This document shows, piece by piece, positions 1,880-6,021 of a DNA stretch of 6,021 nt. The notes beneath the pieces are model-generated. The model did no database searches, was not told the origin of the DNA, and saw nothing but the letters and a program-made list of their open reading frames with translations. Origin of the DNA: a virus (taxonomy: Duplodnaviria; Heunggongvirae; Uroviricota; Caudoviricetes); the IMG/VR virus record IMGVR_UViG_2671180758_000013; one strand, written 5' to 3'. Position numbers and translations under genes: made by a program. How positions within the stretch are numbered: the stretch's first letter is position 1; the number at the start of each line of letters is the position of its first letter.

Positions 1880-2065
1880 TTACTTAATTATGTAATTCAT
1901 ACCCGAACTCTCTGTTGACAGCCTTCTTCTGCAGGCTTCAATAACCCACGCTGAAAAGTTTCCTGAACCTTTCAGATCAAGAGCGATGTTAATTTGTTCA
2001 ATCATCTGGTTTGGAAATCGGATGTTGCGGGTTGTTGTTCTGCGGGTTCTGTTCTTTGATGACAT
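1880..2065 (-). CDS. Small ribbon-helix-helix (Arc/MetJ-like) DNA-binding protein, probably YlcI/YnfO family (DUF3950), 61 aa
   Basis: Minus-strand ORF with ATG (complement of 2063-2065) 5 nt after GGGGAA. Product MSSKNRTRRTTTRNIRFPNQMIEQINIALDLKGSGNFSAWVIEACRRRLSTESSGMNYIIK has a basic N-terminal arm, a beta-strand (NIRFP), helix A, a G-S-G-N turn and helix B, the RHH pattern seen in Arc/CopG. From memory, similar small proteins sit near the cos-proximal right end of lambda and next to the Nu1 homologs of E. coli cryptic prophages (ylcI/ynfO); unverified here. Confidence 0.7.
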   Translation of the reverse strand: MSSKNRTRRTTTRNIRFPNQMIEQINIALDLKGSGNFSAWVIEACRRRLSTESSGMNYIIK

Positions 2066-2271: not shown

Positions 2272-2283
2272 GGGCGGCGACCT
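2272..2283 (+). other. cosN: 12-nt cohesive-end sequence (terminase nicking site)
   Basis: GGGCGGCGACCT at 2272-2283 is identical to the lambda cohesive end, flanked by lambda-like sequence (...GGTTACG | GGGCGGCGACCT | CGCGG...), and sits about 190 bp upstream of the Nu1 start as in lambda. Confidence 0.85.
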
Positions 2284-2323
2284 CGCGGTTTTTCACTATT
2301 TATGAAAATTTTTCAGGGAAAAT

Positions 2324-2332
2324 CGTGTCGGT
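2324..2332 (+). promoter_or_regulatory. Candidate R3-like terminase-binding element (TCGTGTCGG)
   Basis: One-mismatch copy of the R1 motif TCATGTCGG in the same orientation; spacing to the other elements (about 60 and 40 bp) is comparable to lambda R3-R2-R1. Confidence 0.4.
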
Positions 2333-2380
2333 ACTTCTCGAATATAACTTTTTGTTTTTCTTTAATATTGCATCCGTAAA

Positions 2381-2395
2381 GGTCCGACATGAAAG
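2381..2395 (-). promoter_or_regulatory. Candidate R2-like terminase-binding element, inverted (GGTCCGACATGAAAG)
   Basis: Its reverse complement, CTTTCATGTCGGACC, matches the R1 element TTTTCATGTCGGGCC at 13 of 15 positions. A partial direct repeat GTCCGAAAATG follows at 2397-2407. Confidence 0.45.
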
Positions 2396-2420
2396 TGTCC
2401 GAAAATGCCTTTTTCTGGCG

Positions 2421-2435
2421 TTTTCATGTCGGGCC
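2421..2435 (+). promoter_or_regulatory. Candidate R1-like terminase-binding element (TTTTCATGTCGGGCC)
   Basis: Inverted partner of 2381-2395, located 26-40 bp upstream of the Nu1 start codon. Confidence 0.45.
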
Positions 2436-2460
2436 TTGTATTTGATAATGGGTTGTTTTC

Positions 2461-3009
2461 ATGAAGGTTAATAAAAAGAGGCTTGCCGAAATTTTCAACG
2501 TGGACCCGCGGACGATTGAACGCTGGCAGTCTCAGGGACTCCCTTGCGCCTCCAAAGGTAGTAAGGGCATTGAATCTGTATTTGATACTGCCATGGCAAT
2601 TCAGTGGTATGCGCAGAGGGAAACTGATATCGAAAACGAAAAGCTCCGCAAAGAACTGGACGATTTGCGTGCGGCAGCGGAGTCAGATTTACAACCCGGC
2701 ACCATTGACTATGAACGCTACCGACTCACAAAAGCGCAGGCAGATGCGCAGGAACTGAAAAATGCCCGTGAAGACGGAGTAGTGCTGGAAACTGAACTGT
2801 TTACCTTCATTCTACAACGTGTGGCACAGGAGATTTCGGGGATACTTGTGCGTGTGCCGTTGACATTACAGCGTAAATATCCGGACATTTCACCATCACA
2901 CCTTGATGTGGTGAAAACTGAAATCGCGAAAGCCTCCAATGTTTCAGCTAAGGCCGGTGAAAACGTGGGCGGGTGGATCGATGATTTCAGACGCGCAGAA
3001 GGCAGCTAA
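2461..3009 (+). CDS. nu1: Terminase small subunit (lambda Nu1 homolog)
   Basis: 182-aa product begins [28 protein letters not shown]... (lambda Nu1: MEVNKKQLADIF...RTIQNWQEQGMP, from memory) and shares [32 protein letters not shown]. The N-terminal winged-HTH region differs at several positions from lambda. Confidence 0.93.
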
Positions 3010-4909
3010 TGCAGCCGGTGCGATAGCTACAGGGCTTTTATCTCTCATTATTCCTGTTCCACTGACGACAGTTCAGTGGGCCAATAAACATTATTACCTT
3101 CCTAAAGAGTCGTCTTATACCCCGGGGCGGTGGGAAACACTGCCGTTTCAGGTTGGCATCATGAACTGTATGGGCAACGATCTGATTCGCACGGTTAACC
3201 TGATTAAATCTGCCCGTGTTGGTTATACAAAGATGTTGCTGGGAGTGGAGGCTTATTTTATTGAGCATAAATCACGCAACAGCCTTCTTTTTCAGCCCAC
3301 GGACTCAGCTGCTGAAGATTTTATGAAATCTCATGTTGAGCCAACGATAAGGGATGTTCCTGCATTGCTGGAGCTGGCTCCATGGTTCGGAAGAAAACAC
3401 CGCGATAATACGCTCACCCTGAAGCGTTTTTCCTCCGGTGTGGGGTTCTGGTGTCTGGGTGGTGCGGCAGCAAAAAACTACCGTGAAAAATCCGTGGATG
3501 TGGTCTGTTATGACGAGCTTTCCTCGTTCGAACCGGATGTTGAAAAAGAGGGTTCGCCAACCCTGCTGGGGGATAAACGTATTGAGGGCTCTGTATGGCC
3601 AAAATCCATTCGCGGCTCGACGCCTAAAATCAAAGGCTCCTGCCAGATCGAAAAAGCCGCTAACGAGTCGGCACACTTCATGCGTTTTTATGTGCCCTGT
3701 CCGCACTGTGGGGAGGAGCAGTATCTGAAATTTGGCGATGATGCCTCGCCTTTCGGTCTTAAGTGGGAGAAGAATAAGCCAGAAAGTGTTTTCTACCTTT
3801 GTGAGCATCATGGCTGTGTGATCCATCAGTCTGAGCTTGACCAGAGTAACGGGCGGTGGATCTGTGAAAACACGGGCATGTGGACCCGTGACGGCCTGAT
3901 GTTTTTCAGCGCCCGGGGTGATGAAATTCCGCCGCCGCGCTCCATCACTTTCCATATCTGGACGGCGTACAGTCCGTTCACCACATGGGTACAGATTGTC
4001 TATGACTGGCTGGATGCACTGAAAGATCCCAACGGCCTGAAAACCTTTGTGAACACCACGCTGGGCGAGACCTGGGAAGAGGCCGTGGGCGAAAAACTCG
4101 ATCACCAGGTACTGATGGATAAGGTTGTGCGTTACACGGCGGCGGTGCCTGCCCGGGTGGTTTATCTGACGGCGGGCATTGACTCGCAGCGAAACCGTTT
4201 TGAGATGTATGTCTGGGGATGGGCTCCGGGAGAGGAAGCCTTTCTGGTGGATAAAATCATCATTATGGGGCGTCCCGATGAGGAAGAGACGCTGTTACGT
4301 GTGGATGCGGCGATCAACAAAAAATACCGCCATGCAGACGGAACCGAAATGACTATTTCTCGTGTCTGCTGGGACATCGGGGGGATCGATGGCGAAATCG
4401 TTTATCAGAGGTCAAAAAAACACGGTGTTTTCCGGGTGCTGCCGGTAAAAGGCGCATCTGTCTATGGCAAGCCGGTGATCACCATGCCAAAAACCCGCAA
4501 TCAGCGGGGCGTGTATCTGTGTGAAGTGGGGACGGACACCGCAAAAGAAATTCTCTATGCCCGTATGAAAGCCGATCCCACGCCTGTGGATGAAGCCACG
4601 TCGTATGCCATCCGTTTTCCTGATGATCCGGAGATTTTTTCGCAGACAGAGGCGCAGCAACTGGTCGCGGAAGAGCTTGTGGAGAAGTGGGAAAAAGGAA
4701 AGATGCGTCTGCTGTGGGATAACAAAAAGCGGCGTAACGAAGCGCTGGACTGCCTGGTGTATGCCTACGCGGCATTACGTGTGTCCGTGCAACGCTGGCA
4801 GCTTGATCTGGCTGTACTGGCAAAATCCCGGGAAGAAGAGACGACCCGGCCAACCCTTAAAGAACTGGCAGCGAAGCTGTCCGGAGGAGTGAATGGTTAC
4901 AGTCGCTGA
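2981..4909 (+). CDS. A: Terminase large subunit (lambda gpA homolog)
   Basis: Long ORF with lambda gpA-like blocks throughout ([124 protein letters not shown]). Start placed at ATG 2981 (MISDAQK...), which gives the lambda-like N-terminal length and a 29-nt overlap with Nu1; the upstream in-frame ATG 2939 is an alternative. Confidence 0.93.
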
Positions 4910-5099
4910 ACTGCAGGCGCTGCGTCAGGCGCGCCTTGATTTATTAACCGGTAAACGGGTGGTGTCTGTCCAGAAAGATGGTCGCAGAATTGAATATACG
5001 GCGGCTTCTCTGGATGAGCTTAACCGGGCGATCAATGATGCGGAGTCGGTACTGGGGACAACCCGGCGTCGCCGTCGTCCGCTGGGAGTGAGGTTATGA
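4893..5099 (+). CDS. W: Head-completion / head-tail joining protein (lambda gpW homolog)
   Basis: 68-aa product [55 protein letters not shown]... matches lambda gpW in length and in LTGKRV--VQKDGRR-E-T. GGAGG sits 5 nt before ATG 4893; the start overlaps the end of A. Confidence 0.9.
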   Translation: MVTVAELQALRQARLDLLTGKRVVSVQKDGRRIEYTAASLDELNRAINDAESVLGTTRRRRRPLGVRL

Positions 5100-6021
5100 A
5101 ACGAACGCCTGTCCTGATTGATGTGAACGGCGTTCCGCTTCGTGAGAGTCTCAGCTACAACGGGGGCGGTGCAGGATTTGGCGGGCAAATGGCTGAGTGG
5201 TTGCCACCGGCGCAGAGTGCCGATGCGGCCCTGCTGCCCGCGTTGCGTCTGGGGAATGCCCGGGCAGATGATCTGGTGCGCAATAACGGAATAGCGGCTA
5301 ATGCGGTGGCTCTGCATAAGGATCACATTGTCGGGCATATGTTTCTGATCAGCTACCGTCCGAACTGGCGCTGGCTGGGGATGCGGGAGACCGCAGCAAA
5401 AAGCTTTGTCGATGAGGTGGAGGCGGCCTGGTCGGAATACGCCGAAGGGATGTCTGGCGAGATCGACGTGGAAGGAAAACGCACGTTCACGGAATTTATC
5501 CGTGAAGGTGTGGGCGTTCATGCGTTTAACGGCGAAATCTTTGTGCAGCCGGTTTGGGATACGGAAACCACGCAGTTATTCCGTACGCGTTTTAAAGCCG
5601 TGAGTCCGAAACGGGTGGACACGCCTGGACACGGTATGGGGAACCGTTTTCTGCGGGCCGGTGTGGAGGTCGATCGATATGGCCGTGCCGTCGCGTACCA
5701 TATACGTCCGGCCATGCTGCATATTTTCGAGCCGGTGGAGGACGGGCAGACCCGTGGGGCTAATCAGTTTTACAGCGTCATGGAACGGCTGAAGATGCTC
5801 GATTCCCTGCAGGCAACACAGCTTCAGTCGGCCATAGTGAAGGCGATGTATGCAGCGACGATTGAAAGTGAACTTGATACCGAAAAGGCCTTTGAATATA
5901 TCGCCGGCGCGCCACAGGAGCAGAAGGATAATCCGCTTATTAATATTCTGGAGAAGTTCTCCAGCTGGTATGACACGAATAACGTGACACTGGGCGGTGT
6001 CAAAATTCCGCACCTTTTCCC
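5096..6021 (+). CDS. B: Portal protein (lambda gpB homolog), 3'-truncated by window end
   Basis: ATG 5096 overlaps the W stop (ATGA). Translation MKRTPVLIDVNGVPLRESLSYNGGGAGFGGQ...GNARADDLVRNNG...HAFNGEIFVQ...HIFEPVEDGQTRGAN-FYSVME-LKMLD-LQ-TQLQSAIVKAMYAATIESELDT... is collinear with the lambda gpB N-terminal half. Open to the window end. Confidence 0.93.
   Translation, partial: MKRTPVLIDVNGVPLRESLSYNGGGAGFGGQMAEWLPPAQSADAALLPALRLGNARADDLVRNNGIAANAVALHKDHIVGHMFLISYRPNWRWLGMRETAAKSFVDEVEAAWSEYAEGMSGEIDVEGKRTFTEFIREGVGVHAFNGEIFVQPVWDTETTQLFRTRFKAVSPKRVDTPGHGMGNRFLRAGVEVDRYGRAVAYHIRPAMLHIFEPVEDGQTRGANQFYSVMERLKMLDSLQATQLQSAIVKAMYAATIESELDTEKAFEYIAGAPQEQKDNPLINILEKFSSWYDTNNVTLGGVKIPHLF

Follow-up and report, generated by a model that had tools for sequence, protein, structure and literature searches.

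Does a cos site that carries the cohesive end of lambda next to a different set of terminase-binding repeats have a packaging specificity of its own? The question is raised by the intergenic DNA between the lysis and terminase genes in the stretch analyzed here, a 6,021-base segment of a caudoviricete genome (IMG/VR record IMGVR_UViG_2671180758_000013), which is referred to below as the window. A first-pass annotation of this segment proposed that its cosB keeps the architecture of lambda while being built on another repeat motif, and that it forms, together with the neighboring Nu1-type protein, a terminase-cosB pair of separate specificity.

Repeat motif between cosN and the terminase genes

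The motif TCRTGTCGG has exactly three matches across the 6,021-base window, which a motif search placed at positions 2323 to 2331 (plus strand), 2384 to 2392 (minus strand), and 2424 to 2432 (plus strand). The layout is direct-inverted-direct, with start-to-start distances of 61 and 40 bp, and the arrangement described by the first-pass annotation (spacing of ~40 to 60 bp) is therefore present in the DNA. The three copies are flanked on the left by a cohesive end identical to that of lambda (2272 to 2283) and on the right by a gene of the Nu1 family (2461 to 3009). The claim that cosN is the same as in lambda was also confirmed, as the 12-nt cohesive end GGGCGGCGACCT and its flanks (2265 to 2288) are identical in the two.

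The shortness of the motif (9 nt) is the only point in favor of regarding the repeats as chance matches in AT-rich intergenic DNA. The count expected by chance is 0.07, and three copies were reached in none of 200 dinucleotide-preserving shuffles, which argues against such a reading, as do two further lines of evidence given below, the identity of the repeats to studied sites and their conservation among relatives.

Identity with the cos region of coliphage 21

In a megablast search of positions 2200 to 2520 against 50,697 phage records, the named match was coliphage 21, and window positions 2272 to 2520 are 99.6% identical to the left end of this phage in three phage 21 records. The reference records (GenBank X02501, M81255, and OL657228) annotate R3, I1, R2 ("in opposite orientation to R3 and R1"), R1, I2, I0, cosQ, and the cohesive end. 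Each of the annotated phage 21 elements, namely, cosQ, cosN, I2, R3, I1, the inverted R2, R1, and I0, is found in the window with 0 mismatches, and the three 9-mers correspond to the R3, R2, and R1 cores.

The packaging-termination subsite cosQ (GGGTCCT) lies at 2242 to 2248 on the plus strand and is identical to cosQ of OL657228 (42902 to 42908). About 30 bp separate it from the top-strand nick to its right, its distance to cosN equals that in phage 21, and it is overlapped by a putative "R4" box known from the M81255 annotation (2241 to 2252; 1 mismatch to that record). The plus-strand cohesive end at cosN equals bp 1 to 12 of both OL657228 and lambda, with the nicks falling at 2271/2272 on the top strand and at 2283/2284 on the bottom strand. 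In the alignment, positions 2265 to 2336 are identical to phage 21. This interval includes I2 (2301 to 2315, plus strand; 15/15 against I2 of M81255), an IHF-like site in the segment between cosN and cosB that is required for packaging termination (PMC4669245). It also includes R3 (2321 to 2336, plus strand; AATCGTGTCGGTACTT; 16/16 against M81255 and OL657228), the critical TerS site by homology. R3 occupies bp 50 to 65 counted from the cohesive end and has a G at bp 56 (position 2327) and a G at bp 59 (position 2330), both of the 21 type.

Farther to the right, I1 (2343 to 2357, minus strand) is identical to I1 of M81255 and OL657228. It is followed by R2 (2379 to 2394, minus strand; plus-strand sequence AAGGTCCGACATGAAA), a TerS site inverted relative to R3 and R1, and by the accessory TerS site R1 (2422 to 2437, plus strand; TTTCATGTCGGGCCTT), each matching its phage 21 counterpart at 16 of 16 positions. 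The rightmost element is I0 (2444 to 2458, minus strand; 15/15 against I0 of M81255), which is IHF-like and overlaps the ribosome-binding region of gene 1. The minus strand of I1, AAACAAAAAGTTA, matches the IHF consensus WATCAANNNNTTR at 12 of 13 positions and is a predicted IHF site, and a 12/13 match within I0 lies at 2446 to 2458 (minus strand). A consensus scan of the whole window gave 4 matches against 5.7 expected, i.e., no enrichment, and what carries meaning is only that two of the matches fall on the annotated I1 and I0.

When the window was aligned with lambda and two phage 21 records, a single departure from phage 21 was seen from cosN to the start codon, in a T-tract between I1 and R2. 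This tract reads GTTTTTCTTT in the window and GTTTTTTTT in phage 21, a change of one extra base and one T-to-C substitution, and the I1-R2 spacer of the window has the same length as that of lambda. Between cosQ and cosN, two substitutions separate the window from phage 21. Judged by these identities, positions 2242 to 2458 almost certainly represent a complete cos site of the phage 21 class, situated in the lysis-terminase gene interval of a lambdoid E. coli prophage.

Terminase genes downstream of the cos site

The gene at 2461 to 3009 (plus strand) encodes the terminase small subunit (TerS), corresponding to phage 21 gene 1 and homologous to lambda Nu1 (Pfam Phage_Nu1, E value of 3e-81). 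Its 182 codons specify a protein that shares 181 of 182 residues with 21 gp1; residues 1 to 160 are identical, and the sole change, at residue 162, lies outside the DNA-binding domain. Identity to lambda Nu1 is 52%. Residues 1 to 54 are 100% identical to PDB entry 7LWR_A ("Terminase, small subunit"), and the protein also matches two lambda domain structures, 1J9I and 6HN7. The recognition helix of its winged helix-turn-helix (residues 17 to 24) reads RTIERWQS, in which E20 and S24 are of the 21 type. The lambda helix reads RTIQNWQE, and the substitutions that the first-pass annotation had reported in the DNA-binding region of the Nu1 protein are thus real.

The gene for the terminase large subunit (TerL; phage 21 gene 2, gpA homolog) extends from 2981 to 4909 on the plus strand and contains the Pfam domains GpA_ATPase and GpA_nuclease. 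Its start at 2981, which follows the OL657228 and RefSeq annotations, makes terL overlap the end of terS. A gpW homolog occupies 4893 to 5099, and the DNA of TerL, gpW, and the portal gene is 99.6% identical to phage 21 (window 2272 to 6021).

Lambda versus phage 21 specificity

Neither CGTTTCC nor its complement GGAAACG occurs anywhere in the window, while lambda has this core at bp 53, 114 (minus strand), and 155. The absence of the lambda core had been noticed correctly, but the two motifs are not unrelated. When the 21-type CGTGTCGG is aligned to the lambda CGTTTCCG, 2 of 8 core positions differ, bp 56 and bp 59, and the lambda and 21-type R motifs are by this alignment homologous. The likeness extends to the entire site: lambda has the same cosQ, cohesive end, R3 at bp 50 to 65, I1, inverted R2, and R1 layout and spacing as the window, and the start of its small-subunit gene is near bp 190 in both. 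Each of the three R cores departs from its lambda counterpart at bp 56 and bp 59, and the recognition helix differs too, with Q20/E24 in lambda Nu1 and E20/S24 in the TerS of the window. A cosB of lambda specificity has three CGTTTCC boxes (a T:A pair at bp 56 and C at both bp 58 and bp 59), and these are not in the window.

Published work on the two phages established that lambda and 21 have cosQ and cosN in common and diverge in their R sites and in the recognition helix of TerS (PMC4669245). In helper packaging, each packages its own DNA >1,000-fold better than that of the other, reciprocally (PMC4669245), with cross-packaging values of about 1e-4 to 8e-4 against 1.2 to 1.75 for self-packaging (prophages per cell; Table 6 of PMC4669245). 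The same account traces the discrimination to the R sites and the TerS helix, places the contacts and clashes at bp 56 and bp 59 of R3 and at TerS residues 20 and 24, and describes a clash of lambda E24 with the G:C pair at bp 56 of 21 R3 (PMC4669245). The order R3-I1-R2-R1 with an inverted R2 has likewise been published for phage 21 (PMC9026076). The expectation that a phage with this cosB would not cross-package efficiently with lambda despite the shared cosN agrees with these lambda/21 data.

A pair of cosB and TerS that belongs to neither lambda nor phage 21 might be considered, given that the motif is not the CGTTTCC of lambda and that the DNA-binding domain of TerS differs from that of lambda. 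However, R3, R2, R1, I1, I2, and I0 are all identical to phage 21, the first 160 residues of TerS are those of 21 gp1, and the published determinants (bp 56, bp 59, and residues 20 and 24) are without exception of the 21 type. A third specificity is extremely improbable on this evidence and was ruled out, since every determinant is identical to that of phage 21. The predicted specificity is that of phage 21 itself, which is non-lambda and already known. Of the original proposal, the combination of R boxes with a diverged Nu1 domain in a non-lambda pair stands, and the part that does not is that the pair has a specificity of its own. Alignment with lambda and phage 21 likewise upheld a non-lambda cosB while finding nothing new among its determinants, all of which belong to phage 21. 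The cos site of phage 21 is known in detail, having been sequenced since 1985 to 1993 and dissected genetically, with the structure of the DNA-binding domain solved, and the question of lambda versus 21 specificity has already been worked out genetically and structurally.

Two other types of cos site share features with the window. Phage N15 has a lambda-like cosQ and cosN and a Nu1-family TerS, as the window does, but it possesses just one critical R3, has no IHF site, and lacks R2 and R1 upstream of gene 1, whereas the window has a tripartite cosB with I1. The cos sites of PICIs also resemble the window in their lambda-like cosQ and cosN. They have no R repeats, and the gene that follows them is rpp (139 to 154 aa, no TerL-binding tail) instead of a full-length terS, in contrast to the three R boxes of the window, which are followed by a 182-aa Phage_Nu1 protein and a gpA-type TerL. 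A 21-type TerS, that of CFT073 prophage 4, is a reported target of Rpp proteins (PMC9026076).

Conservation of the cosB elements among relatives

A scan of IMG/VR with the TerS protein identified 80 loci at 93 to 100% protein identity, 77 of which had enough upstream DNA for comparison; together with the window, these represent 44 distinct cosB sequences. The recognition helix is invariant in 80 of the 80 relatives. The core of R3 starts at bp 55 in 75 of the 77 loci, that is, in all of those in which cosN could be placed, the exceptions being the two most diverged loci (L082 and L083), whose cohesive end differs in sequence and in which the automatic locator did not place cosN. The distance between the cores of R2 and R1 is 43 bp in every locus that keeps both, while the distance between those of R3 and R2 ranges from 56 to 59 bp among the relatives through changes in T-tract length; the R3-to-R2 spacing of the window is common to 11 of the 77.

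The most diverged relatives (L081 and the clade of L082, L084, and L086) differ from the window at 34 to 37 of 177 cosB positions, and 0 or 1 of these differences fall within the 24 core positions (hypergeometric P of 0.002 to 0.03, with three of the four relatives belonging to one clade). The sole core change, in L081, turns TCGTGTCGG of R3 into TCATGTCGG, which is the version present in R2 and R1. Because so few differences fall in the cores of the diverged relatives, the repeats are conserved and not chance matches. The doubt attached to the first-pass annotation, that the repeats might be fortuitous and not conserved in related cos sites, is settled by the retention of these cores. A chance origin, which is contradicted by the shuffles, by the conservation of the cores at fixed spacing, and by the identity of the repeats to annotated and genetically studied sites, has a negligible probability and was rejected.

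The clade spanning L082 to L086, at 93% TerS identity, has kept both the 21-type R cores and the recognition helix. Two of its members, L084 and L086, have a cohesive end that differs in the right half (GGGCGGCAGCGG), in line with a published remark that bp 7 to 12 vary among lambda-like cohesive ends.

The T-tract between I1 and R2 (2349 to 2363) is polymorphic, with G T5 C T3 in the window, G T8 in phage 21, and ~4 lengths among the relatives. This spacer polymorphism could show the phasing slack that is tolerated by an IHF-bent R3/R2 hairpin. There is also a slim chance that the T-tract spacer, together with the lambda-type flank on the cosQ side, tunes packaging efficiency or IHF dependence, as opposed to the specificity class.

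The R2-R1 palindrome

R2 and R1 form a palindrome at 2379 to 2437, with 27-nt arms at 2379 to 2405 and 2411 to 2437. The palindrome reaches past the 16-bp R boxes and covers nearly the entire R2-R1 interval. Folded as RNA, it has a predicted energy of −35.5 kcal/mol (z-score of −8.5; 26 pairs), and 0 of 200 shuffles fold as well. Such a fold would agree with a hairpin in the late transcript upstream of gene 1, by which the palindrome would act mainly or additionally as RNA in the role of a terminator, a stability element, or a translational regulator; the complementarity beyond the 16-bp R boxes and a terminator-like pattern match at 2414 to 2433 point in the same direction. The comparison among relatives speaks against it, as none of the 26 pairs showed a compensatory (two-sided) change in 11 distinct relatives, and the score for covariation was not higher than that of every one of 500 shuffles. 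In addition, a search of Rfam gave no match, the full stem is not followed by a proper T-run, and a terminator at this place would presumably block late transcription into the head genes. Most of the symmetry is explained by two inverted copies of one binding site, and a role as RNA is very unlikely beside that of the R2 and R1 boxes as TerS sites in the DNA.

Scans of positions 2050 to 2520 gave two promoter-like sites against 1.5 expected from shuffles and two terminator-like sites against 0.6 expected, one of the latter being cosN itself; these numbers are near chance.

Prophage context, mosaic joint, and portal deletion

The genes of the window are ordered as lysozyme, Rz and Rz1, a DUF3950 gene (minus strand), cos, terS, terL, gpW, and portal. 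Over 5.7 kb, the window is 99.86% identical to a prophage in E. coli Z1322HEC0005 (NZ_CP148578.1), which has the full lambdoid set of exo/bet, N, repressor, O/P, Q, lysis, head, and tail genes to J, and whose RefSeq annotation places nothing in the cos interval. At least 80% of the 461-bp cos segment is present in 635 of 5,426 complete E. coli genomes, and the segment is 100% identical in three complete genomes of this set. The lambdoid prophage that holds the element appears complete and is common in E. coli.

To the left of cosN, the window is lambda-like, at 82 to 100% identity per 40-nt bin over 1931 to 2290 (100% for 2131 to 2170), and rightward of about 2251, it is 98 to 100% 21-like. 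This change places a mosaic joint within the cosQ-cosN block, which is conserved. Left of cosQ (1931 to 2240), where the window resembles lambda, it has no relation to the right end of phage 21, and the window is a natural hybrid between a lambda right end and a 21 left end. Immediately upstream of cos, on the opposite strand, is the 61-aa DUF3950 (YlcI/YnfO family) ORF at 1880 to 2065 (minus strand). The 3′ part of this ORF falls in DNA that is 82 to 95% identical to lambda 48.2 to 48.3 kb, a stretch without an annotated gene in NC_001416.

The portal gene (start at ~5096) has a 69-bp in-frame deletion at 5703/5704 relative to both phage 21 and the NZ_CP148578.1 prophage, by which residues CEDDFPFSGSGRWERIPRELPTG are removed. 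A 36-mer across the deletion junction had no match in the 5,426 complete E. coli genomes, and in the best matches listed, the two flanks align separately, with 69 bp between them. The deletion could be genuine but rare, in which case it may cripple the portal, or it could be an artifact of sequencing or assembly; a prophage carrying it may not form virions alone. An intact cos site in a defective prophage, acting as a substrate only for a co-resident or superinfecting helper of 21 specificity, is suggested by the deletion relative to phage 21 and the closest prophage and by a junction missing from all of these complete genomes. Nevertheless, this scenario is unlikely, in that the deletion is in frame and could stem from assembly, and the nearest relative among the complete genomes carries the full lambdoid gene set. 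Moreover, it bears on the viability of the prophage and not on the identity of its cosB, whose assignment to the phage 21 class met with no contrary evidence.

Proposed packaging mechanism and implications

The steps of the mechanism proposed for this cos site come from the lambda/21 literature, and the present analysis contributes the identity of the elements and the conservation of cores and spacing. TerS (21 gp1) dimers would read the R boxes, with the core C(G/A)TGTCGG, through recognition helix residues 17 to 24. IHF bound at I1 would bend the DNA and bring R3 and the inverted R2 to face each other, with R1 in an accessory role. Bound TerS would then anchor TerL, which is expected to lead to nicking of cosN 12 bp apart and to the GGGCGGCGACCT cohesive ends, while cosQ, cosN, and I2 would serve the termination of packaging at the next cos on the concatemer. 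Under this model, lambda terminase would package this DNA inefficiently, and vice versa, because of the differences in the R boxes (bp 56 and bp 59) and in TerS (residues 20 and 24). Packaging and protein binding by this particular copy are predicted from its sequence identity with phage 21.

RefSeq leaves the cos intergenic region unannotated, and a confident label as a phage 21-class cos site with all of its subsites is possible for it. From the specificity class of a prophage, one can predict the co-resident phages, cosmids, or PICIs that its terminase is able to package.
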